Assembly: GCA_048882045.1 (NCBI GenBank)
Contig: JBHLRZ010000012.1
Span: 10,012-74,011 of the forward strand
Source: Candidatus Thorarchaeota archaeon
GTDB lineage: Archaea > Asgardarchaeota > Thorarchaeia > Thorarchaeales > Thorarchaeaceae
Direction: 5' to 3'
Length of the DNA stretch: 64,000 bases
The notes beneath the pieces are model-generated. The model saw nothing but the letters and a program-made list of their open reading frames with translations. It did not search any database and was not told the DNA's origin. The first letter of the stretch is position 1. Each line of letters begins with the position of its first letter. Below, one piece after another: positions 42,375 to 58,500 of this stretch. A program made the translations under genes and the position numbers.

Positions 42375-43759
42375 AGGCTGTCACTTGGATTCTTCGGATT
42401 GCATCCATTGCTACCTTCGCAGTAATGGCATACCTCGTATATGCAATACTGGATGTTAATGACTTCTGGCACTGGGACGCTCCCTATGCATTCATAGTCA
42501 CAGTATTTCGTCTCTTGTCTCTCATCATATTTTTCTTGACAACAACGATGATTGCTGGTCTCATCAGTGCTTTTGCTGGAGGAGCAATGCCAAATGATCT
42601 AGTGGTAGGTCTGTACAATACAATCGTTCTGAGAACTTGGTATATGCAACCATATGGCGTGAGTGATCCTCTGACAAATGTTACTCAGGTATGGGCGTCA
42701 TTCCAGGCCAACCTTCTGAACTCCCTCTATGCACTCTGGGACAACACCTTTCTCTTCCTGTATTTTCTCTTCGCAGGAATAGGAATTGCCCTGTTCCTCC
42801 AGTCTCTAGTTCGTATGGAACACAAGTTTGTCGGTGGCGCGTTCCTCTCGATTCAAGCAATTGTTATCATTGCTGCATACCGAATGCTTATCGTTCCTGA
42901 TCTGAGTCCTTTTCCAGCTGACTTTGTTGTTTTCATATTTCGACCAGCTCAGTTGCTGGCGCTTGTTTCATTTGCTTATCTAGAAGTCAGTTATCAGATG
43001 ATCTATAGCTATTCAGTTGGAAAGCCTGTAGAAGACCGAGAAGAAACCCTGAAGAAACAACTACTTGCCCTTCGCCAAGCTACGAGGAAGCAAGATGCGA
43101 TTGAACGTGGTGAGAAAGTAAGCATCACAGGTATGAGTCGTACAACTGGTGCTACTGCATTCTCGTTCCTCAGAGAAGCTATTGAACGTAAGGTTGTTGG
43201 GACTCAAGATGCCCTCGAGAGTCTTGATGCAGTTTCTGATGTTCGCAGACTACAAATCTATGTTGATGAACTACTTCAATCTGACCCACGAGCACGAGAT
43301 GAACTGACAGCAAAGGCTGCAGCCCCCTCATCATCCTATGTTATTGCCTCTACGATAACAGGTTCAATAATCAGATTCCTTACTGTTATTGTACTTTCCT
43401 TTATTCTCATGAGTCCGAGTGTTGTATCAACCCTCCTCAACCTGCCCCTTGGAATCCAAGATAGTGTTGAACTGTTTCAACCTGAAATTGTTCTGCTGTT
43501 CTTGGTGCCTATAGTGTTACTCTTTCCATTCGCAGCAATGGTCATCAGTTGGTTTTCAAAGCGGGAAGTAATCGAGAAACCCAAGCTCTCTAAGGAAGAA
43601 AAAGAAGCCGAGAAGCAGAGAAAGAAGGATTTGGCTCGGAAGAGGCGTGAGGCTGATAGGGCTCGAAGAGAACGCGCGAGAGCAAGGAAGAAACGCAGGG
43701 GAGATGAAACTGAAGTTGATGAATGGGACAAAGCCCTTGCGGAGAGCTTCAAGCGTTAG
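42371..43759 (+). CDS. Multi-pass membrane protein of the MoxR locus with highly charged C-terminal tail
   Basis: About 7 hydrophobic segments; start overlaps the DUF58 stop; R/K/E-rich tail. Confidence 0.7.
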   Translation: MKAVTWILRIASIATFAVMAYLVYAILDVNDFWHWDAPYAFIVTVFRLLSLIIFFLTTTMIAGLISAFAGGAMPNDLVVGLYNTIVLRTWYMQPYGVSDPLTNVTQVWASFQANLLNSLYALWDNTFLFLYFLFAGIGIALFLQSLVRMEHKFVGGAFLSIQAIVIIAAYRMLIVPDLSPFPADFVVFIFRPAQLLALVSFAYLEVSYQMIYSYSVGKPVEDREETLKKQLLALRQATRKQDAIERGEKVSITGMSRTTGATAFSFLREAIERKVVGTQDALESLDAVSDVRRLQIYVDELLQSDPRARDELTAKAAAPSSSYVIASTITGSIIRFLTVIVLSFILMSPSVVSTLLNLPLGIQDSVELFQPEIVLLFLVPIVLLFPFAAMVISWFSKREVIEKPKLSKEEKEAEKQRKKDLARKRREADRARRERARARKKRRGDETEVDEWDKALAESFKR

Positions 43760-46608
43760 AGGAGCATAAGGGCACTCATCATTACCCAAATCACTGTAAC
43801 AACGGCTTCTCCAGCAACAATTCCACTCAGTATTCGACTGGTGACACTATATCCTGCATCATAGACCTCAATCTGTTGCTGTTGTAGGTCCGGAGTTTTT
43901 GGACTGAGCCCCTTTTGCTCTTTCATCTTGTAGTTGATGTAACCTCCAATCAGTATCGTGACCGAGGTGGCTGGAGGTATGAGTACTCCCACAACAAGAC
44001 TCATTGGACTGAGTCCACGTTTGCTAAGTTCGCGACCAGCGAGAAAACCACCGACTGCCCATGAAAAGAGATACAGAAACATAACAAGGAGATCTACTCC
44101 CTCCAGTCCTCCCAATCCCGGTAATCCAATACCTTCACCAATCCCCTCCAGACTTGTTACAAGAAATCCAAACAGTTGTGCTGCTGGTGCAGGAAAAGCT
44201 GTACTTCCAAACCCATATACACTAAACAGTTGAAAAGTAATCAATGATCCAAACGTTGTTCCGAGCATAGCACCAATAAACACTGCCTTGACAATGTCTC
44301 TCCCACGGACTCCAGTCAACCTACCCAGTTTGAGATGGACCAGTAATGCAATTGCAGAGTCTTGTACTGCACCCAGCATCCCAATGAAAGTAGTAATCGC
44401 TGAGAAGGTGACTTTGAAGAATAGAATTGCTGGAATTGCTACAATGTCAGAAATATACCCAGCAAGCATTCCGGTTTCACTGATTGCCCTAGCAGTGAAA
44501 TATGCTGAAACAAGAGCAAGTGGAGTGCCAAATATAAAGAGTAGCCAATGGATCTGTAGTGGTTCTGTTGCACTCTGCAAGAATGGTGTGAGGAACCAGA
44601 ACACGATTATTCCTATCACCATAAAGATACTCATCGAAAAGAAGGCTATCCATGGAGGAATCTGACCTCTTCGTGACCGTAGATATCCTCTCGGATTTTC
44701 AACAATCTCTCTGATCTCTTCCCTAAAGGTTTCAATTGAGAACAGCTCTTCTCTTACTCTGAGGACTCTGGGTAGTTCCTTGGTCTTGTGTGGAGTATCT
44801 ACTATTATCGCTCCTTCCTCTTCCTCTCTCTTTGAATGTTCCTCGAACTCTTCAGGAGAGAGATTCTTCTCCTTCCTGCCACTGAGGACATCTCCAAGTA
44901 TTATTGTGACAAAGAGGCCCAATGCAAAATACAATATCTCCGGTCTCTTGAGGTGTGTACTATATGCAATCGTTCCATTTGCGCCCTCGATGAATATCCA
45001 GATGAGAATCGAGATTATACTGCCTATGGCCATTATGACTGATCTTTTCCATCCTACAAAGAACCCAATGCCAGCAATCATAGGTGAATTGCTGATTCCA
45101 ATCCAATCAGGGATCGCGGCAGCCGCAGGAATGATTGGTCCCAAGGCATGTGGGACAGCGCTCAATGACGCCCCCGTAGTTCCTTCAACGATCTTTGAAG
45201 TGCCTACCCATGCCCCGGAAGCAGCTATACCCACTCCTACTGATTTCCTTGCCTCAGAGTCGCCTCCAATTGAGTTGATACACTCAGCTTGAGGTTGAAC
45301 CTGTGGCCAGGCTTCCTTCTCAAAACGATCACGAAACGGAGCCAATAGAATGAGTCCGAAGATTGCACTGATTCCTGTCGTGAAAATGATGAAGATCAAT
45401 GTGATTGTAGGATCATATGCACTGAGGGTCTTATTGAATAGGGGATTTTCAGTGTCGAAAATTGCTATTGCAGGGTATGTCATTAGTACTCCAATAGCGA
45501 CCATTGATGAGGAGTTGGCTATCGCCACCACAACAGCGTTCTCTTCTCGAGTATATACTCCATATATGCTCAGGAAAATCGCACCAAGCATCTCAGCTCC
45601 TACCAGAAAAACAACCCCTAGTTTCAAGGCTAGGTAGATGCCCATAAACGTCATCACAATGCCTACAATCAATCCGGTACCTAAAGCGCGTTTTGTAAGG
45701 GGAAACTTTGGTTCTGCCCTGACAATTCCATAGATGGCCAATCCTCCTATAGCCATGACCACGGCCTCAGTGAAGAATGCAAAATAGGAACTTAGGATTA
45801 GATACATAATCATCAGGAATGAAATAGCACCCAGCATTTTCTTATCAGGTGGTGGTCTAAACACTGATAGATAGAGCAGGGCTATCTCTAGGACTAATGC
45901 AAAGATCACATCTGGATGGGACCATCTCCCCTCTGCCATTAAGATTAATGTGTAAAATATCCCTGCGGAAAAGAGTCCTGCAAGGAATGACCTCTTCGGG
46001 TCAGGTCTCACCTTTGTCGTCATTACAATGTAGATAACAAGAGCTCCAATTGTAATGATCGTCATCTCTGAGAAAATTCCGAAAAACAGACTGAAAGGCA
46101 GATAGATTGCTGTGACAAAGACAGCTACTACCAGCTCTTTGAGCTCAAACGGCTTTCTGTACAATGTGAAATAGAGTAGTGTCGAAGTGGTCACAAGAGA
46201 GATTACGACGTCAGGATGGAACCATCTTCCCATGATCATTAGAATTATTGAGTATAACGCTCCAGCTGAGAATAATCCTGAAAGAAGAGATTTTGTTATG
46301 ACAGGTCTAAAAATTGTCGTTATTACCAGATAGAACAATGCAATTGCAATTGCGACAATAACCATCTCTGAAAAAATACCTATCAAGAAACTGAGTGGGA
46401 TATAGATTGCAGAGAAACAGAAAATCATCACACGACCTATAAAGTCTGGAGGAGGGCGGTAAAGCGAGAGATATAGGAATACAAAGGATGTCAGAAGAGC
46501 AATGATGACAGCTGGCTCAGCATAGCGTCCCATGACCATTGCAAACAGAACATAGAAGATAAATCCTGAAAAGATATAGCTTAGGAATCTTCTAGTTCGG
46601 TCCTTCAA
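43756..46608 (-). CDS. OPT/YSL-family oligopeptide transporter with triplicated N-terminal membrane module
   Basis: C-terminal ~650 aa OPT-like (REEN..V...A, FPAPAAQL, SGIVAGEAV); three ~100-aa N-terminal repeats. Confidence 0.7.
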   Translation of the reverse strand: MKDRTRRFLSYIFSGFIFYVLFAMVMGRYAEPAVIIALLTSFVFLYLSLYRPPPDFIGRVMIFCFSAIYIPLSFLIGIFSEMVIVAIAIALFYLVITTIFRPVITKSLLSGLFSAGALYSIILMIMGRWFHPDVVISLVTTSTLLYFTLYRKPFELKELVVAVFVTAIYLPFSLFFGIFSEMTIITIGALVIYIVMTTKVRPDPKRSFLAGLFSAGIFYTLILMAEGRWSHPDVIFALVLEIALLYLSVFRPPPDKKMLGAISFLMIMYLILSSYFAFFTEAVVMAIGGLAIYGIVRAEPKFPLTKRALGTGLIVGIVMTFMGIYLALKLGVVFLVGAEMLGAIFLSIYGVYTREENAVVVAIANSSSMVAIGVLMTYPAIAIFDTENPLFNKTLSAYDPTITLIFIIFTTGISAIFGLILLAPFRDRFEKEAWPQVQPQAECINSIGGDSEARKSVGVGIAASGAWVGTSKIVEGTTGASLSAVPHALGPIIPAAAAIPDWIGISNSPMIAGIGFFVGWKRSVIMAIGSIISILIWIFIEGANGTIAYSTHLKRPEILYFALGLFVTIILGDVLSGRKEKNLSPEEFEEHSKREEEEGAIIVDTPHKTKELPRVLRVREELFSIETFREEIREIVENPRGYLRSRRGQIPPWIAFFSMSIFMVIGIIVFWFLTPFLQSATEPLQIHWLLFIFGTPLALVSAYFTARAISETGMLAGYISDIVAIPAILFFKVTFSAITTFIGMLGAVQDSAIALLVHLKLGRLTGVRGRDIVKAVFIGAMLGTTFGSLITFQLFSVYGFGSTAFPAPAAQLFGFLVTSLEGIGEGIGLPGLGGLEGVDLLVMFLYLFSWAVGGFLAGRELSKRGLSPMSLVVGVLIPPATSVTILIGGYINYKMKEQKGLSPKTPDLQQQQIEVYDAGYSVTSRILSGIVAGEAVVTVIWVMMSALMLL

Positions 46609-46681
46609 TGCTGTTTTCTCCGGGTCGATCGAGGTCTATGGTCCTTCCTACATCTGGCCATCAAATCCTGTATATAACTGC

Positions 46682-46981
46682 CTATGTCATATCTGACAGA
46701 TTTTTTCTGACACTCTCAAGGCTCATTCCCTGAATAAGAAGAGTCTTCTCTCTTGACTTGTGTCCTGCAACAAGGGTGATATTACTTGTAGAGGTCGATA
46801 GTACTTTAGCCATTTTCTTAATCAGTTCTGAATTTGCCTTCCCTTCTCTTGCGGGACTATTCAGATTTAGCACTATGACCTCTGACGATATCTCGGCAAC
46901 AAGATTCTTCTCTCTTGACCTAGGACGTACGACCACTTTGAGAAGAATTCCTCTCTCAGTTTCCCAAATTGCAGAACTCAT
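46682..46981 (-). CDS. DUF167 (UPF0235/YggU) protein
   Basis: VVVRP.S, PAREGKANSELIK, GHKSREK.L. Confidence 0.92.
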   Translation of the reverse strand: MSSAIWETERGILLKVVVRPRSREKNLVAEISSEVIVLNLNSPAREGKANSELIKKMAKVLSTSTSNITLVAGHKSREKTLLIQGMSLESVRKNLSDMT

Positions 46982-47097
46982 GATGATTTGTCAGCACTTG
47001 TCTATATGAGTTCTGTCACGGTACTCGTCAAAGATTTGTTTATTTGTGGAATATACAGGAGGTTCTTGTTGACCGTAGAAGTACGGGGTGAATTCAC

Positions 47098-47484
47098 ATG
47101 AGCGATCCTGTAATGGATGCATATACGCAAGCATACAATAGTTCAGGCAATATGGTTCAAGCTTTTGGCGTGATAACTGAAAGCGGACAAGTCCTATGGC
47201 AGAGTAACAACTGGGACCTTACAGCTGAGGCGTCCAGTCTAATTTCTGCTGTTAAATCGAGAAGCTCTTCAGTCGTGCAGAACTCAGTCAAATATAGCAC
47301 AATGAGGTCTACTCCTGAGAGTCTAGTGGCTCGCAATGTCCAGGGGAATGGAATCCTCATCCTGACAAAGATTGACGCTGCAGGTGACCGATGGGTTGTA
47401 GCATGGGCTGATGCAAGTGCACAGCCAGATGGTGTCTACGTAGACGTTGACCGTGCTGCAAAGACCCTTCGTGGTAAGATTTAA
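47098..47484 (+). CDS. Asgard profilin
   Basis: AFGVI..SGQVLWQSNNWDL, VKY....T.E..VARNV.G.G.L..., AAK.L; size and motifs match Asgard profilins as recalled (QTENW..., GIKY, GKGH). Confidence 0.85.
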   Translation: MSDPVMDAYTQAYNSSGNMVQAFGVITESGQVLWQSNNWDLTAEASSLISAVKSRSSSVVQNSVKYSTMRSTPESLVARNVQGNGILILTKIDAAGDRWVVAWADASAQPDGVYVDVDRAAKTLRGKI

Positions 47485-47490
47485 TCGAGA

Positions 47491-47548
47491 AATCAGGGGG
47501 ACTTTCTGAGACGAATCCCCCTAGATTACTCCTCTCAGAATCTGGAGG
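47491..47548 (+). promoter_or_regulatory. Structured intercistronic RNA element (pseudoknot/alternative stems) before the RBS of profilin 2
   Basis: AATCAGGGGGA/TCCCCCTAGATT stem plus TTCTGAGA/TCTCAGAA interleaved stem, followed by GGAGG. Confidence 0.5.
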
Positions 47549-47555
47549 CCTTCTT

Positions 47556-47930
47556 TTGAGCTCGACAATAGGAAACGAATGGACACAACTCTACTCGAAC
47601 AATCCTAAGGTCCAAGCGTTCGCAGTCGCCAAGGATGAGGCCATCATTTGGCAGACCGATAATTGGGACTTGGTAGAGGATGTAGAAGGGATCATTAAAG
47701 CAATCTCTGGTGACAAAGGTAGCGTTTCTGTTGGAGGAGTCAAATACAAACGAGTCTCATCATCAGATGACTCCTATCTTGCCACAGCTGACAACGACCA
47801 AGGACATCTTCTCATTGTCAAGATCGACGAGAATGCTTGGGCTGTTGCTTTTGCAGTCCCTATTGCAATACCTGAGCTTTCAATCATAGACGTGAAAAAG
47901 ACTGCAACACAGCTAAAAGGTCACGTCTGA
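47556..47930 (+). CDS. Second profilin-like paralog
   Basis: VQAFAV...IIWQTDNWDL, VGGVKY, QGHLLIVKID, WAVAFA; aligns end to end with the upstream profilin. Confidence 0.8.
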   Translation: MSSTIGNEWTQLYSNNPKVQAFAVAKDEAIIWQTDNWDLVEDVEGIIKAISGDKGSVSVGGVKYKRVSSSDDSYLATADNDQGHLLIVKIDENAWAVAFAVPIAIPELSIIDVKKTATQLKGHV

Positions 47931-47932
47931 TC

Positions 47933-48685
47933 TCATTTTCCTGGAAATAGTATTTCCCTGATTCTGTATATGATATCCATATACTCCTTAGATCCTAAGG
48001 AGTAATAATCTAGCAGCATCTCATACATACTCAGAATCTCTTTGTTTGCCACATCTAGGCTGACCATCTCTGCAATCTTGGTCCTCCACTCGTGTTGCAT
48101 TTTTGCTCTTTTGACACTTAGCTCCAAGAGCTCTGTGCGCTGTTCTTCAGAGAGATTAAGGTTGAATGCGTCTAGCATCTTTAACGTGTAATCTTCAAGC
48201 TTCTCCCTGATGCGTTTCTCCTCAGTACCCCACGCACCTGTGGTCAACATAAATCCCTTCGCAGTTCTACGATAGTAATCGGTTGTTCTCTTTCCGGTTT
48301 TGACAGTACCATACTTGACAACATATCCTGCCTTTTCTAAAATTGGTAGATGGTGGTAAACCTGATTCTTCGTGATCTTTTCACCGTCATAGCAACACTC
48401 AGGTGACTGTTTCACTATCTCGACCACAGACAAGACATTTCGTTTGACTTTTCTCCTTGTTCTGATGGTTGTATCTCCCTCAACGGTTTCTGTGGTGATG
48501 GTGTCTTCGATTCCTTTTCGTAAGACTTGCAAGATGTTGTATCGCACAATCTCATCCAAGACTTCTGCCTTTTCGTCGTCTGTCACAAAAATGATCTCTT
48601 TCTGAGGTTCCTTGCCCTCTTTCGTATACTTTATTCCTTTGAGGCTGTCCGTTTCTTCCGTCGTAAAGTCTGTGTCATCGCCCAT
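47933..48685 (-). CDS. ArsR-like winged-helix transcription regulator
   Basis: R.NILQVLR, LSVVEI, VYHHL..LE.AG.V, YYRRTAK; ATG 48685 preceded by GGTGA. Confidence 0.8.
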   Translation of the reverse strand: MGDDTDFTTEETDSLKGIKYTKEGKEPQKEIIFVTDDEKAEVLDEIVRYNILQVLRKGIEDTITTETVEGDTTIRTRRKVKRNVLSVVEIVKQSPECCYDGEKITKNQVYHHLPILEKAGYVVKYGTVKTGKRTTDYYRRTAKGFMLTTGAWGTEEKRIREKLEDYTLKMLDAFNLNLSEEQRTELLELSVKRAKMQHEWRTKIAEMVSLDVANKEILSMYEMLLDYYSLGSKEYMDIIYRIREILFPGK

Positions 48686-48723
48686 ATTATTCTTCACCAA
48701 TGCATTTCTGATCCGTCGATTCT

Positions 48724-48771
48724 TCAAGCGACTCGGATAGCCCTGGAATCGTTGGTCCTCATTTTTCTCAT
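48724..48771 (-). CDS. Putative leader uORF MRKMRTNDSRAIRVA
   Basis: 15-codon ORF in the regulator's leader; its ATG ends the hairpin TGGGTTTT/AAAACCCA. Confidence 0.25.
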   Translation of the reverse strand: MRKMRTNDSRAIRVA

Positions 48772-48906
48772 GGGTTTTGGATTTTAAAACCCACTAGGAG
48801 CGCTTTAAACTGCTCCTTGCTTGTTCTATAATCGTATATGGCTAAATATAAGTTTGTTGTTCAGACTATTTGTGTGCTATGTACGTGATTTTATAACCAA
48901 ATACTG

Positions 48907-48979
48907 AATTTTAGTGTTTAACAACAACGTAAAAAACCTAAATGGTTGGTGGCACAAACCTTATATACAATTTTAGTGT
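48907..48979 (+). promoter_or_regulatory. Promoter of the small-peptide operon: TATA TTATATA (48961) with direct repeats AATTTTAGTGT at 48907 and 48969
   Basis: Exact 11-bp repeats, one directly downstream of the TATA box. Confidence 0.55.
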
Positions 48980-48999
48980 GACAGAACCTGTGAAACATC

Positions 49000-49107
49000 A
49001 TGGCTTTCGTGAGACTAACGAACAACGAACGTGAGAAGTTGAATAACAAGATGGCGAAGGTCCAAACAGCCTACGCCCTCGCATACTCTTACCAGTACAG
49101 GAGGTAA
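49000..49107 (+). CDS. Small peptide 1 (35 aa) MAFVRLTNNEREKLNNKMAKVQTAYALAYSYQYRR
   Basis: ATG ~39 nt after TATA; its 3' end carries AGGAGGT, the RBS for peptide 2. Confidence 0.6.
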   Translation: MAFVRLTNNEREKLNNKMAKVQTAYALAYSYQYRR

Positions 49108-49114
49108 ACAAGAA

Positions 49115-49207
49115 ATGGCACTAGCTAAGACAGTCCCAAGGAAGAAGTACGTTGACAAGAAACAGATTTCTACTGAGGCTATCACTCATTCCTACAAGTA
49201 CAGGTAG
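49115..49207 (+). CDS. Small peptide 2 (30 aa) MALAKTVPRKKYVDKKQISTEAITHSYKYR
   Basis: Strong RBS AGGAGGT; shares C-terminal SYxYR with peptide 1. Confidence 0.65.
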   Translation: MALAKTVPRKKYVDKKQISTEAITHSYKYR

Positions 49208-49213
49208 ATTGCA

Positions 49214-49330
49214 ATGACTCCGATCAACGAACAAATTGCATTCCTCCCTGAAAAGGAGAGCCGTTCAGTAGACGCGGACAAGCGTCCAGTACTTACTACT
49301 GAAGAAGTGCTCTTGTTGGAAGCAACCTGA
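49214..49330 (+). CDS. Small peptide 3 (38 aa) MTPINEQIAFLPEKESRSVDADKRPVLTTEEVLLLEAT
   Basis: 6 nt after the peptide 2 stop, AGGT upstream, followed by a T-tract (CTCTTTTT). Confidence 0.5.
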   Translation: MTPINEQIAFLPEKESRSVDADKRPVLTTEEVLLLEAT

Positions 49331-49382
49331 GCACTCCAACTCTTTTTGCCGATATACTCTGGTGATTTCTCACCAATACGCA

Positions 49383-50174
49383 TCATTTTCTGAAACTGAT
49401 TTGATAGAAGGTCTCGTTCATGACATAGGTCAACTCTACATCTTTTGCCTTCTCTGGAATATGTTGTAGAGGAGGTCGTGCTGCAAAGAGTGAGTTGGCC
49501 TCTATGATTGCCTTTCCTTCCTCCGTTTCCATCTTCTTGGGTGAAAGCCCTTCATCCACAACGATAATGACTCCACCTGGCTTTGCGATTCGAAGCATCT
49601 CGTTGAGAGAGCCTGGAATGTCTGAGAAAGTGTTGATACCACCAGAATGCAATACAATGTCGAACTGGTTCTTCTGATATGGGATGTTGAAGACGCTACC
49701 ATGGGTAAGACTAACATAGAGCCCAACCTCGACAAACTTCCGTTGAGAAACAGCAAGCATCCCTGTTGAGAGGTCCATCCCATGTAGATTGAACCTGTCC
49801 ATCTGTTTCTCGAATTGATCATGAATGGCTATGAAGTTGGCTCCGGTTCCAATGCTGACATCTATTATCTTCACTGGGCCCTCTATTGGAATAAACATAT
49901 GGAAATTCTGACGTTCCTTCATCAGATCTATACCTAGCCAGTCATCGTATTGTTTGACCAGCTCGTCGTAGGTTTCAGCCATCTCGTCATATTCTGATAT
50001 CCACTTAGCATCTTCATCGCTGATCGGAGGATGCACCAGCGATGGTATTCCCTTACTTACAGACCAGATGTGTCCCTTCACACAGACAATTTCTCCCTCC
50101 ATGAGGTCTCCGTTACTTCGCAGTTCTTTCCCGCACTTAGGACATCTCAGGACCTTTAGATGGGCATCATCCAT
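49383..50174 (-). CDS. Class I SAM-dependent methyltransferase with N-terminal Trm112-like zinc ribbon
   Basis: LRCPKC...C..GH.W....GIP; IIDVSIGTG, GMDLS..ML, FDIVL, EMLRIAKPGG. Confidence 0.88.
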   Translation of the reverse strand: MDDAHLKVLRCPKCGKELRSNGDLMEGEIVCVKGHIWSVSKGIPSLVHPPISDEDAKWISEYDEMAETYDELVKQYDDWLGIDLMKERQNFHMFIPIEGPVKIIDVSIGTGANFIAIHDQFEKQMDRFNLHGMDLSTGMLAVSQRKFVEVGLYVSLTHGSVFNIPYQKNQFDIVLHSGGINTFSDIPGSLNEMLRIAKPGGVIIVVDEGLSPKKMETEEGKAIIEANSLFAARPPLQHIPEKAKDVELTYVMNETFYQISFRK

Positions 50175-50274
50175 TGTATCGCCTCACACTACTACAGGTC
50201 ATTCGGTTAAAATATGAATCGAATGAGATTTTGTACATCATAGGATATGTTATCCTAAGACGTTGGGTTTCTGA

Positions 50275-51129
50275 CTATTCCCTCATGACACTCTGAATCA
50301 TCGCCTCGACCCCTGACAGAACTGTCTTGACAACCTGCCACTGAATCATCACGACAAGTCTGCTTCGGATGTGCAAAGCCCACGGTTGTGAGCTCTCATC
50401 ACTTGGAAGAAACACTCCCACACTCTCTCTTCCATCAACGTTCATGATAAGCATCCTCGTTGGTTCCATCTCGTCTGGATGGAGATCGGGTGGCGTCTGA
50501 AATACTTCCTTGAAACTCTCTAACAGTATTTCCTTACTTGGCATTGCAATCTTGATGTCCAAGTAGTGCTTTAGATCCTCTATCTCCATAGCCCCCGGGG
50601 TTGTAGTGTATACCTCTATTTTGACATCTCGGTTCTTAGCCGAGCTGAATGCCCCTCTCAGTCTGCCCAAGAGAACAGGTGACGCTGAGGCAATTGACAC
50701 GAACTCCTCAGCCTCTTCAATTGCTGACCGTAATCCAACAATGACCTGATCCATTCCTTCAACAGCCCAGGCAAACTCCTTCGGTCGAGTATCTCTCAGT
50801 ACTTGGAGTCCTTGAAGGACTTTACGGGCACTTGAGGCTGAGCTCTTCACTTTCTCTTCTAGGTGGTCTAATGCAGCATCAACAGGAGCAGGATCGAACT
50901 CTGTAGGATCACTTCCTGTGACCTTCTTGATTATCCCTCTCTTGTCTAGCATATCAAGGGTTTCATACACTTTGCTTCGAGGAATGCCTGACTCCTCTGC
51001 GATTTCTCTTGCTGTGGATCTACCAATCTTGACAAGAGCATGATACGCCTTTGCTTCATTCTTGGTAAGACCGAGGCTGGTAAGGTCATTGACAATAGTG
51101 TCTTGAACCACATCGACCACCTTAGACAC
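50275..51129 (-). CDS. trmB: TrmB-family transcription regulator
   Basis: LGLT.NEAKAY.AL, TA.EIA..SGIPRSKVYE.L..L..RG; C-terminal effector domain. Confidence 0.9.
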   Translation of the reverse strand: MSKVVDVVQDTIVNDLTSLGLTKNEAKAYHALVKIGRSTAREIAEESGIPRSKVYETLDMLDKRGIIKKVTGSDPTEFDPAPVDAALDHLEEKVKSSASSARKVLQGLQVLRDTRPKEFAWAVEGMDQVIVGLRSAIEEAEEFVSIASASPVLLGRLRGAFSSAKNRDVKIEVYTTTPGAMEIEDLKHYLDIKIAMPSKEILLESFKEVFQTPPDLHPDEMEPTRMLIMNVDGRESVGVFLPSDESSQPWALHIRSRLVVMIQWQVVKTVLSGVEAMIQSVMRE

Positions 51130-51156
51130 CTAATTCGATTTGAATATTAAATCTCT

Positions 51157-51175
51157 TGTCACTTTAGGAGTGACA
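51157..51175. promoter_or_regulatory. Operator palindrome TGTCACT-N5-AGTGACA upstream of trmB
   Basis: Perfect 7-5-7 inverted repeat, 5 nt upstream of the minus-strand TATA (TTTAATAT). Confidence 0.7.
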
Positions 51176-51183
51176 CAAAAACC

Positions 51184-51459
51184 TCATTCATTATCTATAT
51201 CTTCGCCTTCAATTATCCTTTCGATTTCATAGAGGCGACCAACGATTGCAACACCCTTGTCGGTCAGGGAGAGATACGGACTATCATTCTCTCCACGGAG
51301 GAGATAGACCAGCTCTTCTTTCACTAGTCTGTCCCGTATTTTGTCATAGTTCTCGTCTGAAGCCATGTTTGCCCTGAGGTCCTTTTCAAACCTGTCCCCC
51401 CATATGATTTGGAAAAGAATCTCACGAACTTCCGGTCGGACTAGAAACTCAATTGTCAT
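51184..51459 (-). CDS. Small winged-helix protein
   Basis: L...ELV......YLSLTDKG..I...L.EIE wHTH wing signature. Confidence 0.7.
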   Translation of the reverse strand: MTIEFLVRPEVREILFQIIWGDRFEKDLRANMASDENYDKIRDRLVKEELVYLLRGENDSPYLSLTDKGVAIVGRLYEIERIIEGEDIDNE

Positions 51460-51499
51460 GTTTCTCTCTACAGGTTCCCAGCTGTAATGAAGTCTATGC

Positions 51500-51518
51500 T
51501 GTCATCCCCAGAGTGACA
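51500..51518. promoter_or_regulatory. Second operator copy TGTCATC-N5-AGTGACA upstream of the ABC exporter operon
   Basis: Same motif, 5 nt upstream of the TATA-like ATAATAT. Confidence 0.65.
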
Positions 51519-51555
51519 CCAGCATAATATGTTCTCGAGCTACTTTCATACCTAG

Positions 51556-52527
51556 GTGATTCTACTGGCTTCAATAGTTGAAATATCGAATCTTTCCCAC
51601 ATCTACAGTGGCGACATCAAGGCGCTTGATGATCTTTCTTTCAGTGTAGAGGAAGGAGAGCTGATCGCTCTTCTTGGACCGAACGGAGCTGGCAAGTCAA
51701 CAACTGTAAAGATGATAACTGGAATCCTGAAACCCACATCTGGTAGTGTCAAGGTTTCAGGCCACGAGGTCACAGATAGTCTGGATGAAGTCAGGAAACT
51801 CATAGGTTTCATGCCACAAGAAACTGCACTCTATCAGGACTTGACCGCACATGAGGCACTCGAGTATCATGCTGAGCTCTATGGGGTTCCCAAAGAAGAG
51901 GTAAAGGATCGTATTTCCAAGATGCTCGAATTAGCTGGTCTCACTTATCGAAAAGATGATTTGGTGAAGACCTATTCTGGTGGAATGAAGAGGCGACTAG
52001 CGCTCGTACGGTCAATATTGCATGACTCCGAACTCCTCATCCTTGATGAAATGTCATTGGGTGTAGATGTCCAGAGTCGAAACCTGATATGGAATCAGGT
52101 TCGCAAGATGAGGGATGAAGGAAGGACAGTCATTTTCTGCACGAACTACATGGATGAGGCCGAAGCTTTGGCAGACCGAGTTGTTGTAATTGACAATGGA
52201 CGTCTTGTTGCTAGTGGGACACCTAGTGATTTGAAACGTCAATATGTTGGGGATTTTTTGATTGAGGTCTTGTTGGAAGGAATGGACTCCTCACAAGACT
52301 CAGAATGGTTGACCAAAAGCATCGGCTTTGAGGTGGAGAAGGTTTCAGACCCACTGAACGGAGGGCCCAGAACAGCTTGGATTCGTAGTCAATCGGGTCA
52401 CTCAGATCTACCTCTAGTGATTGGTAAACTGTCTGAAATTGGATTGATAGTTAAGCAGGCATCCATGAGAGAACCATCTCTTGGAGATGTCTTCCTTGCG
52501 ATCACTGGCTCGAAATTGAGGGATTGA
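51556..52527 (+). CDS. ABC-2/DrrA-type exporter ATP-binding subunit
   Basis: GPNGAGKST, YSGGMKRRL, ILDE, YMDEAE.LADRV, EPSL.DVFL.ITG. Confidence 0.93.
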   Translation: MILLASIVEISNLSHIYSGDIKALDDLSFSVEEGELIALLGPNGAGKSTTVKMITGILKPTSGSVKVSGHEVTDSLDEVRKLIGFMPQETALYQDLTAHEALEYHAELYGVPKEEVKDRISKMLELAGLTYRKDDLVKTYSGGMKRRLALVRSILHDSELLILDEMSLGVDVQSRNLIWNQVRKMRDEGRTVIFCTNYMDEAEALADRVVVIDNGRLVASGTPSDLKRQYVGDFLIEVLLEGMDSSQDSEWLTKSIGFEVEKVSDPLNGGPRTAWIRSQSGHSDLPLVIGKLSEIGLIVKQASMREPSLGDVFLAITGSKLRD

Positions 52528-52528
52528 T

Positions 52529-53662
52529 ATGCTCCGTGAGATAGTCGCAATAGTGAAGAAAGACCTGAAACAGGCCAAGAGAGACCCTAAGTTCATTGCA
52601 CCAAGCCTGATCATCCCCTTTGTTTTTCTTCTTGTATACACTATCATGTGGACGTCAGTTGGAGGAGGTGAGTCTTTCGCATGTGGGCTCGTTGTAGAGG
52701 ATCTATCTCCTGAAGCCAATGATATGGCCAATATCATTGAGAATATGGTGTCTACAACAAATCACACATGGTTCAGCATAGAACGTTATGATGCTGAAAC
52801 TGCTGATGAACTCTATCGGAGTACATCTCTAATCGCTTACATTTTGATACCCGCGGGATTTGGAAATAACATTACGTCAGGTCAAGATGCAGTTGTTATT
52901 ATGTACATTAACAATGCCAATGATGATGTAGTTAAGAACTATGTACACAGAGTAGAAGCAGCAGTCCTACTATTCAACCAAGGAGCTGTCTATCCTGAGT
53001 TTGATCAGTCTGATGCACGAATAGCCATTGATGAATCATTTAGTCTGGTCGAAACCCCTTCCAATCTCAAATACATGGCAGCCGTAGCAATCTTACTTTC
53101 GCTCATGGCCTGTTCTCTTGCAAGTCAGGCTATGCTGACAGCAACCGAATTCGAAACAAATGCCCTCCAAGACACTCTGAACTCTCCAACCCCTCGACTT
53201 GCTCTGGTTCTTGGTCGAACTATAGCTGCTATTCCTAGATCCTTGTCCGCGGTCTTGATATCTGCTCCTGTGATTTGTTTCGGTATGGGTGTGTTCCCAA
53301 CAGGAAACATACTCGTGCTCATCGGAATTCTATTTCTCACAATTATTGCGCTAGTGCCAATTGGCGAACTGCTTGGAATGAAGATACGAAACCGAGAACA
53401 GGCCCTGCTTGCTGCAGTTCTGTTCACAGTGTTTGCATTCTATATAGGAGGCGGCATTGCTCCTATTGGACTATCTCCAGCTCCAATAAGGGTGATTGCA
53501 GGGATTTTCCCAACCACTCATTCATACTTTCTATGGACCCGCGTGTTCTTCTCTGACACGGTTCTTGGATTGACAACAAGCTCGTTGTTTCTAGTTGGTT
53601 CATGGATTGCTTTGTCAGCTGTCGTGCTTCATCTCATGAAGAAGGAGGTAGAACGGTCTTGA
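52529..53662 (+). CDS. ABC-2 type exporter permease
   Basis: KDLK...RDP, extracellular IP.GF domain, E.E..L...SP, multiple TM helices. Confidence 0.88.
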   Translation: MLREIVAIVKKDLKQAKRDPKFIAPSLIIPFVFLLVYTIMWTSVGGGESFACGLVVEDLSPEANDMANIIENMVSTTNHTWFSIERYDAETADELYRSTSLIAYILIPAGFGNNITSGQDAVVIMYINNANDDVVKNYVHRVEAAVLLFNQGAVYPEFDQSDARIAIDESFSLVETPSNLKYMAAVAILLSLMACSLASQAMLTATEFETNALQDTLNSPTPRLALVLGRTIAAIPRSLSAVLISAPVICFGMGVFPTGNILVLIGILFLTIIALVPIGELLGMKIRNREQALLAAVLFTVFAFYIGGGIAPIGLSPAPIRVIAGIFPTTHSYFLWTRVFFSDTVLGLTTSSLFLVGSWIALSAVVLHLMKKEVERS

Positions 53663-54855
53663 ATTTGTCATTTAGAGTAGTTCGAGCCAGCCTTCTCAAA
53701 GAGATGCGAGTGTGGAAACGAAGTCCTCACAAATTGGCTTTAGTAATCCTTCTGCCACTGATGTTCTTCTCCGGATTCAGTATGCTCATGGGAGGAGTGT
53801 ATTTCGGAAGTGGTGTTGAAACAGCTGTGGTCATACAGGAACAGAATCCTGGTTTCTACACGGAGGCTCTGATTGAGATTTTAGGAGAGTATGATCCGAT
53901 CCCACCAAGGCTTGACCCAATAATGATGGACTCGGAAACAGCCAATGCTCTTTTCCAGAATGGTGAGATTCTACTCGTCATTACTATCCCTGAGGGATTC
54001 GAGGATGCCATCGCGAACAATGACACCACATCGATTCAAGTCCAAGTTGCAAATATCCATGAAGATCTGACAAAGAACTTGCGAATGCCAGTCATACGCA
54101 AGATTGACCTCTTCTATCAGAGATATTTGCTAAATGACTCCCTAGTTGACTTTGAGGTAGAGAGTCTCCGACCTTTCACACCACCAAGATTGGCTTACAT
54201 GGCTTGGACAATCGCAATCTACTCGGTCATGTTTGGAGGAATCTTTGCTGCAGGTTCTGCAATGACACAGGAATTCGAACAGGATACAATGGATGAACTT
54301 ATCCTCTCCAACCAGTCTCCCATTGCAATATACGCAGGCAAGATGCTGAGTGGTGTCATAATTGCTCATGTGGCCTTACCATTTCTTTTCCTACTCAGCT
54401 TCGCGCTCTTTGGGGTCTGGCCCAACGGAGATATTCTTGTCTTTCTTGCAATGACACTTCCCCTAGCAATATTCAGCTCAGGACTTGGATTGATTGCAGG
54501 AGCTATCTTCAGAAATTCTGTCTTTGTTGTACCTGTTGCAGCTCTTGGTGGTATCTTCTATTGGATCACTGGTGGCGGAATTGCTCCTTTGGAACTTGTA
54601 GGTGAAACGTTCGGTATGTTTGACGAATATCTTCCTGTTTCCAATGTCTATCGGTCCATGATCAGAATGTTCGTTGAAGGAAGTTATGGAACATTAATCA
54701 TCGATACCGCTGTGATTGTCACATTTGCAATCATCTTTCTACTGATATCCCCACTCATCGCAAACCGGTTGAGCGGTGTAGATATCGGTACAAAGCTGGA
54801 GAAGATAAAGCAGCGAAGAGCTAAAGGGACTCAACAACAACTTCAGTCAACTTAG
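53659..54855 (+). CDS. ABC-2 type exporter permease (second)
   Basis: KE.R...R.P, IPEGF, EFE..T..EL; TTG start after AAGGAGGT. Confidence 0.88.
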   Translation: MNLSFRVVRASLLKEMRVWKRSPHKLALVILLPLMFFSGFSMLMGGVYFGSGVETAVVIQEQNPGFYTEALIEILGEYDPIPPRLDPIMMDSETANALFQNGEILLVITIPEGFEDAIANNDTTSIQVQVANIHEDLTKNLRMPVIRKIDLFYQRYLLNDSLVDFEVESLRPFTPPRLAYMAWTIAIYSVMFGGIFAAGSAMTQEFEQDTMDELILSNQSPIAIYAGKMLSGVIIAHVALPFLFLLSFALFGVWPNGDILVFLAMTLPLAIFSSGLGLIAGAIFRNSVFVVPVAALGGIFYWITGGGIAPLELVGETFGMFDEYLPVSNVYRSMIRMFVEGSYGTLIIDTAVIVTFAIIFLLISPLIANRLSGVDIGTKLEKIKQRRAKGTQQQLQST

Positions 54856-55936
54856 GATTGTGATTTCTATTGTAGAGCCAGAACAGACCATATGATACCA
54901 GAGACATCACCATAGCGAATAACATGATTGGCGTATACCCTGGCCATATTGTATAGATGACTGCTGCAAGAACGGGCCCTATGATTCCAGACAATGACAA
55001 CATTGATTCAAGTAGTCCTGATGCTGTCGACCTTTCCTCATTGTTCTCGGTCACGTACTTCAAGGCACCAACATAGAGTGTTGCCCAGGCAAATCCCAGG
55101 AGAATTTGCGACGGCAGAATCTCGATGATATTTGTCGCGAATGGGAACCAAGCGAATGTCACAGCTGAAGCTACTAATCCTATTGCTACTGATTTACGAC
55201 TGTCTATCCGATCAGTTATGGTGACCATGAATAGCACTTGCGAAATCGAATTTGTCGCTTGGACTATTGAAATCATGAATGGATCTCCTCCAATGTCATA
55301 GAGAAATAGAGGCCACAGAGTCCAGATGGCAAATGCACTACTATGTCGAATAAGGACAGCCATGTAAATCGAAATGTTTCGCTTGAAGGTTTCAACTGGG
55401 AACCAAGGAACATCCATTTTGAACTCCTGCATGGGCGGCAGAGTGAGCGATGATCCAAATGCAATGATGAGGAATATTGTTGACATGAGAAATGCATAGT
55501 AGATGTTGAAACCCGCTGCGTATCCTGCAAACAGCGTTCCTACTCCCCAGCCTGCAGCCCCCCAGGTGGCGAACCTCCCCATCTTCATCTTAGACTCAAA
55601 GGCGTAAGCAGCTAGAGCTCCAGGATACATGCCGACACAAAAACCATTCATCAGGCGTACAATAAACAGGGTTTCGAAGTTTGAAGACAAGAGGAGTAGA
55701 GCGAAGGATAGAGTGGCTAAGAACAGACCTAACCTGATGATCTTTCTTCTTCCATAGACATCTCCAGCTCTGCCAAAGACATAGGATGAGAGAAACCTTG
55801 CTGTTGCATATCCTGCAACTATTACTGTGATAAGAATCTCAGAGATACCCAGCTCTTCTCTTGCAAGAATCGGTAAATATGTGAAAGCAGAGAGCATTGC
55901 AGCCCCTGCCATAATCTGGATTGTCTCAGTCCTCAA
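54821..55936 (-). CDS. MFS transporter
   Basis: Motif A FGRAGDVYGRR, ~12 TM helices, ERSTASG. Confidence 0.9.
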   Translation of the reverse strand: MRTETIQIMAGAAMLSAFTYLPILAREELGISEILITVIVAGYATARFLSSYVFGRAGDVYGRRKIIRLGLFLATLSFALLLLSSNFETLFIVRLMNGFCVGMYPGALAAYAFESKMKMGRFATWGAAGWGVGTLFAGYAAGFNIYYAFLMSTIFLIIAFGSSLTLPPMQEFKMDVPWFPVETFKRNISIYMAVLIRHSSAFAIWTLWPLFLYDIGGDPFMISIVQATNSISQVLFMVTITDRIDSRKSVAIGLVASAVTFAWFPFATNIIEILPSQILLGFAWATLYVGALKYVTENNEERSTASGLLESMLSLSGIIGPVLAAVIYTIWPGYTPIMLFAMVMSLVSYGLFWLYNRNHNPKLTEVVVESL

Positions 55937-56064
55937 GAAAGTGTCACTGACTCGGCGCCATTATTGTGCCTTTTCAATTGTACTATGTGCTCAAATCCAA
56001 TTTCTTCGCCAAGTAGCAAAACCTTTTGTCCTCTCCCACAAAATATGGCACAAATGAAGGTTGG

Positions 56065-56472
56065 ATGCGAGTATTGGTAGACTTCTCACCTCGTGCAAAA
56101 TTCATTGCAATAACAGTGGACGAGCTCATTCTTGTACCAATTGCGATAATCATTGTGTACTATTTCAAACCCGAATGGCTTCTCCCTATCACCGTCCTGC
56201 TAATCATTGGAGCTGCAATCTTTGTCGCTGGAAAATACTACCTCATCTATCCCTCCCTTCTTGATACTCCTCAGGAGTTCTATGAACTGAAGGGTCTCAA
56301 AGGAACGGTGATTGACACAGTCACACAAACATCGGGGAAGATCAAGGTAGGAGCTGAGATCTGGGACGCTCGTTGTGATATCGGTGAGATCGAAAAAGGA
56401 ACGCAAGTGGTCATTGTATCTCGCGACTTCATGAAGGTTCGTGTAGAACCCATCGGATTCAGTAATGACTAG
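56065..56472 (+). CDS. NfeD-family membrane protein
   Basis: TM N-terminus; G.KGTV...GKIKVG.E.W.A....I.KG..V OB-fold. Confidence 0.85.
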   Translation: MRVLVDFSPRAKFIAITVDELILVPIAIIIVYYFKPEWLLPITVLLIIGAAIFVAGKYYLIYPSLLDTPQEFYELKGLKGTVIDTVTQTSGKIKVGAEIWDARCDIGEIEKGTQVVIVSRDFMKVRVEPIGFSND

Positions 56473-57509
56473 GAGAGCAATTTCATCATTAGATGAATCG
56501 TCATTTCCACGTCTAGTAGATTCACTGCCTCAAAGGCACTGTGTGAATATCTGCATGGTACTGCCAGTACTGCGACTGTCTGTCCTTGAGATGCAAACTG
56601 AACTCCATCTGTCATGTAGTTGTGAAAGACTGCTCTCTGAATTGGGATCTTTTCCATTTCAGCAATCTTGACTATACGTAGGATTAACTCATGCGAGTAA
56701 TGCAGTGCGTTGTCCTTTATCACCACTACCGGGCCTTTCCCTAGTGAAATCCCAGATTCTCCCTTGGTACCAGGATAGTCGTCTGCGAGGCCTATGTCTA
56801 GCACGATTATCTCATCCACATCCAAGTCTCGTGCTACTGCAGCAGCTCCTTTTGCACCCAACTCCTCCATTACGGTCGATACAAAGGTAATAGTTGGCCG
56901 CTTTGTCTTTGCAATTTTCGAAAAATGCTCCAGTACCTTGAGGAGTATAGTGAGACCGATTCTGTCATCCATGGACTTGCCTGCTACTATGTGATCCATG
57001 AGTTTCTCAACAGGTGCAGCATAGATGACAGGGTCTCCTACGTTAATGCCTTGTTCTTTTACTTGATCGGCACTCGTGGCCCCTATGTCGAGAAAGACCT
57101 CCTCATACGTAGGAATTCTCTTTTTCACCTTGGGTCCTGCTATATGTGCAGTCTGGACACAGAATACCCCTGGTACAAAGCCGTTCTCAGCCATGATCAA
57201 GACCCATTGCCCCGGCAAAAGTCTGAGGTCTGGTATATGTCCCTGTGTGTTCCATTTAACTCTCAGGAATCCTTTATCGTCGATATTGCTGACTAGAAAA
57301 CCTACTTCATCAGCATGGGCAACTACAGCGAAGTGCTTGTCAACACCGCCCTCTAGTGTGCAAACGACATTGCCTATTTTGTCTTGGACGAAACTCCCAC
57401 AGTGTTGCTTGAATTGCTCTTTGACTATATCTTGGACAAGTCCTTCTCTCCCAACAGGACCTGGTGTCGCTGATAGAATCTTTAGAAGATCAAGGGTTTC
57501 CTCAGACAT
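56469..57509 (-). CDS. M42 family metallopeptidase (TET-like aminopeptidase)
   Basis: PGP.GRE, AHADEVG, KSMDDRIG, MEELG..GA, LDIG, RYSHS. Confidence 0.92.
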   Translation of the reverse strand: MSEETLDLLKILSATPGPVGREGLVQDIVKEQFKQHCGSFVQDKIGNVVCTLEGGVDKHFAVVAHADEVGFLVSNIDDKGFLRVKWNTQGHIPDLRLLPGQWVLIMAENGFVPGVFCVQTAHIAGPKVKKRIPTYEEVFLDIGATSADQVKEQGINVGDPVIYAAPVEKLMDHIVAGKSMDDRIGLTILLKVLEHFSKIAKTKRPTITFVSTVMEELGAKGAAAVARDLDVDEIIVLDIGLADDYPGTKGESGISLGKGPVVVIKDNALHYSHELILRIVKIAEMEKIPIQRAVFHNYMTDGVQFASQGQTVAVLAVPCRYSHSAFEAVNLLDVEMTIHLMMKLLS

Positions 57510-57708
57510 GATGAACAGCCACGCAATCTTTTGTGAAACTCCCACTTAAGGGTCAGCTTCCATACTCTAGTAAGCTATTTTGGAGATTTGTGAGGATTTC
57601 TGATTCTGAATTGGTTGTCTTCAGCCATCTTTCTCCTTTTCAAATGTAATCTCTGGAGAATACCCTACAATTACCTGAGAATATATTGAGTTCCTGACAG
57701 ACATCTGT

Positions 57709-58164
57709 ATGGCATTCGAAGACACTCTTATAGGGTTAGGAATTGGACTCGTTCTCGCGGTACTTGTTTATCTAATTATGAAGATTCAGCTCCGCCACAG
57801 AATCTCTATGGTTGAGAATGAGTTTGCACTGACATGGGCTGAAAAGGAGGCATCAGTAAGAAAGGATGCAGCCGATAGGAGTCGTTATGTGTTGAAGGGC
57901 AAGATTGCCGAACACATGGTCCCTATGTACAGGGATGTCTTCAACTTCGATCCCGCTGACGCTAGGTTCATTGGCGCTCCAATTGACTACCTTATTTTTG
58001 ATGGCTACACAGCAGCAAAAGACGGAGGTTCTGATAGAGAGATTATCGTTGTGCTTGCTGACATAAAGACTGGGAACGCTCAGCTAAACCGAACTGAACG
58101 GAAGATCAAAGAGGCAGTGGAAAAGGGTAGGGTTCGCTGGGAAACGATCAGACTCGATTTTTGA
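57709..58164 (+). CDS. Holliday-junction-resolvase-like endonuclease with N-terminal TM (Endonuc_Holl type)
   Basis: RKDA..RSR.VL.GKI.E...P, DARFIG.PID...FDG, DIKTG. Confidence 0.88.
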   Translation: MAFEDTLIGLGIGLVLAVLVYLIMKIQLRHRISMVENEFALTWAEKEASVRKDAADRSRYVLKGKIAEHMVPMYRDVFNFDPADARFIGAPIDYLIFDGYTAAKDGGSDREIIVVLADIKTGNAQLNRTERKIKEAVEKGRVRWETIRLDF

Positions 58165-58167
58165 CTT

Positions 58168-58500
58168 CTACTCACAGAAGCAGTCCTTCATGATTGCTCT
58201 CATCACAGCGTCATTCATAGACTGTTCATCAGGGATTCCTGTGAGTTTCATATCGCAGATTCTGATAGTGGGGAGCATAGCAATGTCATCAGTCCCACAT
58301 CCGCACTCATCATCAGAATCCACGTCTATCTTACAAATTGCCGAATTGGAAACTCCAAATCCCATCAAAGCATCTGCTAACATTTCTGTGGCTGCATCAC
58401 AGAACACGCAGAACTTTCCAGTGTAGAATATTATACACCCGCATCTTCCGCATGGTGTTTTCATTTCTATATCTGCCGTAGGAATAGCCTCCGCTTTCAT
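58168..58500 (-). CDS. Cys-rich thioredoxin-like protein
   Basis: FYT..FCVFC, IDVD, LPTI.I...L.G.P. Confidence 0.7.
   Translation of the reverse strand: MKAEAIPTADIEMKTPCGRCGCIIFYTGKFCVFCDAATEMLADALMGFGVSNSAICKIDVDSDDECGCGTDDIAMLPTIRICDMKLTGIPDEQSMNDAVMRAIMKDCFCE

Follow-up and report, generated by a model that had tools for sequence, protein, structure and literature searches.

Three short open reading frames (ORFs) in a 64,000-nt stretch of Candidatus Thorarchaeota DNA, called the window here, are, on comparative evidence, real protein-coding genes under purifying selection. They form a translated-looking, translationally coupled operon in which two basic peptides of one family, X, are followed by one peptide of a second family, Z, with a predicted hairpin terminator at the end. 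The preferred reading, given a probability of about 0.4, is that the products are unmodified, stress-induced docking microproteins that may act on a co-regulated envelope protein. The features of the locus are as follows.

47933..48685, minus strand: divergent winged-helix regulator of the PH1932-like ArsR type with a helical C-terminal domain, assigned by sequence and fold matches
48844..48866, minus strand: TATA-like box of the regulator (48844-48851) and abutting operator copy (48852-48866), from sequence
48945..48959, plus strand: operator A palindrome, here GTTGG-N5-CAAAC, over the BRE position of the cassette promoter
48961..48967, plus strand: cassette TATA box, TTATAT, invariant in 23 orthologs
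49000..49107, plus strand: ORF1 (X1), basic, 35 aa here and in all 23 orthologs, with SD-like GTGA at 48990-48993
49115..49207, plus strand: ORF2 (X2), basic, 30 aa, with SD AGGAGGT overlapping the ORF1 stop
49214..49330, plus strand: ORF3 (Z), 38 aa, ending in the motif [TS].EEVL.[WL]EAT-stop, with SD AGGT overlapping the ORF2 stop
49304..49347, plus strand: terminator-type RNA hairpin (49304-49337) covering the last ORF3 codons, then a T-tract (49343-49347)
49383-50174: convergent methyltransferase gene, on the other side of the cassette from the regulator

These coordinates agreed with an earlier note on this DNA, which had described ORFs of 35, 30 and 38 aa behind a TATA box, gaps of 7 nt (ORF1-ORF2) and 6 nt (ORF2-ORF3), embedded ribosome binding sites and a T-tract; the C-termini of ORF1 and ORF2 (AYSYQYRR and THSYKYR) were also as first read. 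The SD-like sequences were located at 49099-49105 in the end of ORF1 (AGGAGGT) and at 49202-49205 in the end of ORF2 (AGGT). An overlapping 30-aa ORF (48942-49034), which extends across the promoter and is matched nowhere else in the genome, was treated as spurious.

DNA matching the cassette was found in 24 of 24 same-genus genomes, and at the 23 orthologous loci all three frames were open and near-fixed in length. Whole-ORF pairwise dN/dS was 0.32 for ORF1, 0.23 for ORF2 and 0.53 for ORF3; shifted frames gave 0.78-1.33 and most of them contained stops. The C-terminal parts gave lower values: 0.18 in the C-terminal half of ORF1, 0.16 in the corresponding part of ORF2 and 0.20 in the last 11 codons of ORF3, as against 0.30-0.52 at the N-termini of the X genes (C-terminal 0.16-0.18) and 0.65 in ORF3 upstream of its last 11 codons. 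The comparison with relatives proposed earlier thus returned conserved frames and selection at the protein level, not at the nucleotide or ribosome binding site level only. The accompanying caveat, that the shared motif might partly reflect duplicated DNA carrying the ribosome binding site, did not hold for the core, where Ser, Thr, Ala, Ile/Leu and Tyr were encoded by all or most of their synonymous codons. It did hold for the last Arg, which was AGG in 120 of 138 peptides with an X or Z gene next because the codon belongs to the SD of that gene. The 3' end of ORF3 appears to be constrained twice, as protein and as hairpin. The core stem was 91-100% paired in 64 Z genes, and a synonymous choice of Val codon (GTG or GTA) covaried with the hairpin partner base (10/13 versus 5/51, in rows that are related to one another); Thr/Ser outside the hairpin and Leu inside it were encoded by nearly all of their codons.

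The internal SDs were strong, 98% falling below -5 kcal/mol as compared to 56% for ORFs of the genome. Such an SD-coupled chain, with an MFS gene in its last slot at several loci, would suit a function linked to translation, in which the peptides are basic factors that bind ribosomes or RNA and protect or park ribosomes during stress, or are leader peptides that control the coupled Z or MFS gene. The mean net charge of X (+5.4, never below +2) and the crowding of conserved residues just before the stop would fit as well, and antibiotic-induced resistance regulons (WhiB7/WblC) resemble the X regulon in content. This function was judged unlikely. At many cassettes there is no downstream gene to be controlled, occlusion of the start sites did not exceed that in synonymous shuffles (0.48, 0.45 and 0.35 versus 0.48, 0.45 and 0.39), and no ribosomal or hibernation protein was matched in Pfam, NCBIfam or PDB. 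With regard to leader peptides, the next gene in the window is convergent, and a coupled MFS gene was present at a minority of the paralogous loci. Codon usage gave no sign of high expression in the X genes, which when pooled lay at the 10th percentile of the self-consistent codon index. Long-range pairing at the ORF1 start was 0.10 versus 0.15 in controls (56 cassettes). A type I toxin mRNA with a folded-back 5' end was rejected, as the ORF1 start is not occluded and the core is not hydrophobic.

Members of the X family (ORF1 and ORF2) are basic peptides of ~32 aa with a variable N-terminus and the core ST.A[ILV].[YHF][AS]Y.[YF]. The Z family (ORF3) is mostly acidic, ends in [TS].EEVL.[WL]EAT and is separate from X; homology between the two was not detected by profile comparison. 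The family of short peptides suggested from the single locus was borne out and is larger than proposed, with 194 distinct X and 65 Z sequences. The X profile had matches in 67 of 76 Thorarchaeia genomes, with up to 13 per genome, and in 0 of 224 other Asgard genomes; six Thorarchaeia genomes without a profile match still carry an X-like gene facing the regulator. Nine X and two Z matches were found in the source genome, that is, seven more X genes and one more Z gene than in the window. The X-X-Z layout was observed in 58 of 123 distinct chains, minimal loci keep a single X2-like gene facing the regulator, and most cassettes are without a downstream gene on their own strand. No usable match to the peptides was obtained from Pfam or NCBIfam (a match to EdmS at E 0.15 was treated as chance), from PDB sequences, the ESM Atlas or PHROGs, or from Rfam (one match at E 4), while a search of 1.8 billion proteins yielded two long repetitive proteins besides 40 short members of the family. 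Fusion of ORF2 to ORF3 by pyrrolysine read-through of the in-frame TAG was also considered and rejected: PylS was not found over the cut-off in 86 genomes, the junction stop and the spacing vary in paralogs, and the 70-aa database entries are gene calls with TAG read as Q.

By its copies, the cassette was shown to be duplicated elsewhere in the genome as a unit from promoter to terminator. One genome contains five near-identical cassettes, each running from operator to terminator between unrelated flanks; across the five, X2 differs by 6 synonymous and 0 amino-acid changes. Terminal repeats were not evident by eye, several cassette sites are syntenic across genera, and one site of the five, beside a PolX-like gene, is common to other genera. 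This suggests homogenised old copies, which fit the cross-genus synteny better than a mobile element (MITE/IS) does.

Several further elements were seen among the X loci. A third promoter-like element with reversed GTGAC repeats lies between tandem X genes (L031:7300-7460, L034:6940-7095); an ORF within it falls in different frames across genomes, and the element therefore appears to be conserved at the DNA level. Some X genes have another peptide type, L[RK]T..SLY, ahead of them (L032:4887-4994, L063, L087, L090); it ends in EGG where the next SD is in another frame and is probably a drifted X. A variant peptide, VR.E.YR.SF.R, faces divergent regulator copies in three genomes (L193-L195) and occupies the X2 slot at contig C34 of the source genome.

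Aromatic residues of the X core alternate, with Y/H/F at position +3 in 170 of 192 sequences and Y/F at position +5 in 188 of 192; in roughly one family member in ten, R, Q, N or E stands in place of the first core aromatic. The earlier note had been reminded by this pattern of aromatic cross-linked RiPP cores, and an aromatic-X-X motif near the C-terminus is indeed shared with triceptide precursors (PMC11499958). Under such a scheme the cationic X peptides would be precursors of modified or exported products, either a RiPP with aromatic cross-links or an antimicrobial or signal made up of several leaderless peptides, served by unlinked enzymes and co-regulated pumps. The GNATs and pumps could give self-protection, and a methyltransferase, an ABC-2 exporter and an M42 peptidase lie nearby. 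The cross-linked RiPP in particular was not supported, there being no linked or co-regulated maturase and no invariant first aromatic, and the scheme as a whole was held to be quite improbable. No recurrent maturase was found in 75 neighbour clusters or in either regulon, the single radical SAM neighbour being convergent and confined to one locus; no P450 and no FxsB-type enzyme were found over the cut-off in 5 genomes, and the 3 SPASM genes of the source genome are far from any X gene. Unlike triceptide precursors, X has no linked radical SAM cyclophane synthase or P450, and its variable N-terminus and conserved core are the reverse of the leader/core pattern; neither a signal nor a double-glycine leader was found in X peptides. 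The methyltransferase was absent at 3 of 14 syntenic loci and the ABC permeases at 7 of 14, with operator A on neither; the patchy synteny and unshared operators weaken the case for a local module of production, modification and export, and the export genes are not obligate. Finally, the near-universal, conserved presence of X is unlike that of an arms-race toxin.

The terminal -YR had also been compared with the HbYX tails that dock on the proteasome, whereby the peptides would be gate openers or competitors. This was found to be highly improbable. Some X2 peptides do end in LYR, which is the PAN motif (PMC10349142), but they number 11 of 194. ORF1 ends in YRR and ORF2 in KYR; a penultimate Tyr occurs in 36 of 194 sequences and Hb-Y-X in 23 of 194, the commonest endings being YRR, FRR and VVR. 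Among orthologous X2 the Hb position varies between K, T, R, M and L and some members add a residue, and the last Arg is driven by the SD. As to conformation, the AlphaFold model of ORF2 has a disordered N-terminus and a helix at 20-28, whereas residue size in the X core alternates with period two, as in a strand, so that the bound form may be either a helix or a strand.

The divergent regulator had its best PDB match, by sequence and by fold (E 1e-8 for the fold), in 1uly/2cwe, PH1932 of Pyrococcus horikoshii, with which it has in common a winged helix and a helical C-terminal domain. This closest solved structure is distant (20% identity, TM-score 0.37-0.48), lacks the extra beta-hairpin insert and acidic N-terminus of the Thorarchaeia regulator, and has no peptide cassette known from the literature searched. 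Homologs of the regulator were found in 72 of 76 Thorarchaeia and 5 of 224 other Asgard genomes. Upstream of 59 of them, the palindrome GTTTG-N5-CAAAC (operator A) occurred at 71 sites as against 1.0 expected, and it nearly always abuts the cassette TATA box, covering the BRE position. The site at 48945-48959 was the best match of a genome-wide matrix scan, and within 43000-58500 of the window it and 48852-48866 were the two matches; a clear copy at the regulator-side position was present in only some orthologs. Of 75 regulator loci, 50 have a cassette and a TATA-abutting operator, 14 have neither, 7 have the cassette only and 4 the operator only. Two Hermodarchaeia regulator homologs keep the palindrome in the absence of X peptides, which gives independent support to the pairing of regulator and operator. 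We infer that the regulator binds this operator and is a repressor of the cassette; repression is suggested because the operator overlaps the BRE position and second copies lie downstream of the TATA box in several genera. The window copy, which faces its own regulator, is probably the ancestral cassette. Operator A was also found ahead of other genes: in the source genome, an MFS gene, the gene for a GNAT-domain protein of 1110 aa and an operon that includes an FMN reductase; in four other genera, an MFS gene. In one genome (G100; L238, L260) operator A matches lie beside a divergent pair and a further gene that, judged by eye, resemble TldD/TldE and oligoendopeptidase F. A GC-rich inverted repeat upstream of the regulator (window 48796-48817) was terminator-like in a consensus scan.

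The main rival to the docking reading arises from this pairing. ArmR of Pseudomonas aeruginosa is a 53-aa anti-repressor of MexR that is itself under another repressor (PMC6018408), and X resembles it as a small protein with a conserved C-terminal motif, through which ArmR acts, and an efflux regulon under winged-helix repressors. By analogy, the C-terminal motif of X would bind the regulator dimer and lift repression, such that the window cassette provides positive feedback and the copies under a second operator (B) feed a second signal into regulon A. This is possible though doubtful. The distribution of X (67/76 Thorarchaeia) parallels that of the regulator (72/76), the one X gene kept at minimal loci faces the regulator, three genomes pair a divergent regulator with a divergent peptide type, and efflux pumps belong to the regulon, as with MexR. 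On the other hand, a repressor gene is normally found next to its main target, and this accounts for the linkage with no need for binding. Of the regulator homologs, 14 have neither cassette nor operator, and the two from Hermodarchaeia have the operator without X; up to 13 X matches per genome stand against 1-5 regulator genes; most X copies are under operator B; and profile comparison gave no similarity of the peptide to regulator helices. The systems also differ in that ArmR is one 53-aa gene, as opposed to coupled peptides of 30-38 aa in two types and many copies, and in that MexR is a MarR protein and the regulator here is of the PH1932-like ArsR type, its binding by an anti-repressor being putative.

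Operator B, found on the dispersed cassettes, consists of GTCAC-N5-GTGAC with direct repeats before the TATA box. Eight sites were found in the source genome (scores 22-48 versus a shuffle maximum of 13), of which the three best are peptide cassettes; the other five are ahead of an MFS gene, a bactofilin-domain gene, the gene for a GNAT protein of 1106 aa and two genes for membrane proteins. In at least 5 cases the distance from the end of an X gene to an MFS_3-type pump gene is ≤13 nt. Operator A does not precede the bactofilin-like gene, and it is operator A that the window cassette is under. The parallel content of the two regulons (pump, GNAT, peptides) points to a drug or envelope stress response. 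The two GNAT proteins (L215:81-3401 and L212:490-3822) are paralogs of ~1100 aa, in which a GNAT domain at the N-terminus is followed by a long stretch without annotation; operator B precedes one of them and operator A the other. A candidate regulator of operator B is the product of an HTH_45 winged-helix gene (L214:1237-1575, contig C21) directly upstream of the bactofilin-domain gene; the same arrangement was seen in G100, G245 and G104, and in G068, G085 and G025 the HTH_45 gene is within about 6 kb of the bactofilin-domain gene.

At the phylum level the short operator B pattern was too unspecific and the three-repeat pattern was specific. Three-repeat B promoters were found in 15 of 19 Hermodarchaeia genomes with no control matches, and drive MFS genes and a single basic peptide of 29-30 aa with an aromatic C-terminus; a shorter B form is ahead of bactofilin-like genes. 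Profile comparison detected no homology between the Hermodarchaeia peptides and X. These peptides (L284-L313, L314-L333; 16 of 19 genomes) end in YWFACRN or similar and lie at a fixed distance behind the B promoter, often with a zinc-finger protein gene next. In G061 (L282), a CRISPR-like repeat-spacer array starts just behind an operator-B-like palindrome.

Under the docking reading, the cassette would be repressed by the regulator covering the BRE beside the TATA box, and operators A and B would place the peptides in a drug or envelope stress response alongside MFS pumps and GNATs, to which B adds the bactofilin-like gene. Upon induction the X and Z peptides would be co-produced and would act in trans from the cytoplasm, where they remain without modification; they are read as trans-acting outputs because the cassettes hold the best sites of both regulons, usually with nothing downstream. 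The disordered basic tail would make an electrostatic contact, and the conserved C-terminal motif may fold when it docks at a conserved site on an envelope protein of the same regulon, tuning that protein. The MFS pumps are the first candidate target, since they are the sole partner to occur with operator A as well as operator B and since some pump genes directly follow an X gene to which they are coupled; the bactofilin-like filament is the second. Co-regulation does not show binding, and contact of the peptides with pump or filament is something we infer from sequence. In a more elaborate version, offered as speculative and rather doubtful, Asgard archaea would have a dedicated layer of control by microproteins from dispersed, sequence-homogenised operons. 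X and Z would assemble into a small complex that docks on machinery of the cytoskeleton or membrane, the bactofilin-like filament or a pump, and passes on the signals of two stress regulators; the Hermodarchaeia peptide would be an independently shaped or far-drifted counterpart.

Two kinds of small modulator are relevant for comparison. AcrZ is a small membrane-spanning helix on an RND pump and is co-regulated with the pump that it tunes. In contrast to AcrZ-type modulators, X is a basic, non-hydrophobic peptide whose core mean on the Eisenberg scale (0.05) is too low for a membrane-spanning pump subunit, and the pumps here are of the MFS type. MciZ of Bacillus subtilis (PMC10730256), a peptide of about 40 aa that is partly unstructured until bound and tunes a filament protein, would serve as a model for an X peptide docking on a bactofilin-like protein; unlike X, it is a single sporulation gene with FtsZ as its target, and no sequence relation was found in Pfam and PDB searches. 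The X/Z family and its dispersed X-X-Z operons are new, no description of the family having been found in the literature searched, while small proteins of stress regulons are of a known kind. Standard annotation had overlooked this gene family, which is present in multiple copies throughout a class of Asgard archaea; two operators are now defined for it, each with a candidate regulator. The contribution of this locus is the copy linked to a regulator, a quantification of operator A and the parallel between regulons A and B. The parts are small enough to be synthesised, so that binding can be tested in vitro with no need to culture a Thorarchaeon. Should the peptides turn out to tune a filament or to be anti-repressors, they would rank with the earliest microprotein regulators described in Asgard archaea.

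The wider neighbourhood was also inspected. Two tandem profilin-like genes (window 47098-47930) adjoin the regulator in 13 of 14 genomes checked, and the first matches Pfam Profilin while the second does not; a link to the peptides is not indicated, because operator A is not found ahead of them. In most genomes checked, the locus is in synteny with the gene for an OPT-family oligopeptide transporter of 949 aa (window 43756-46608).
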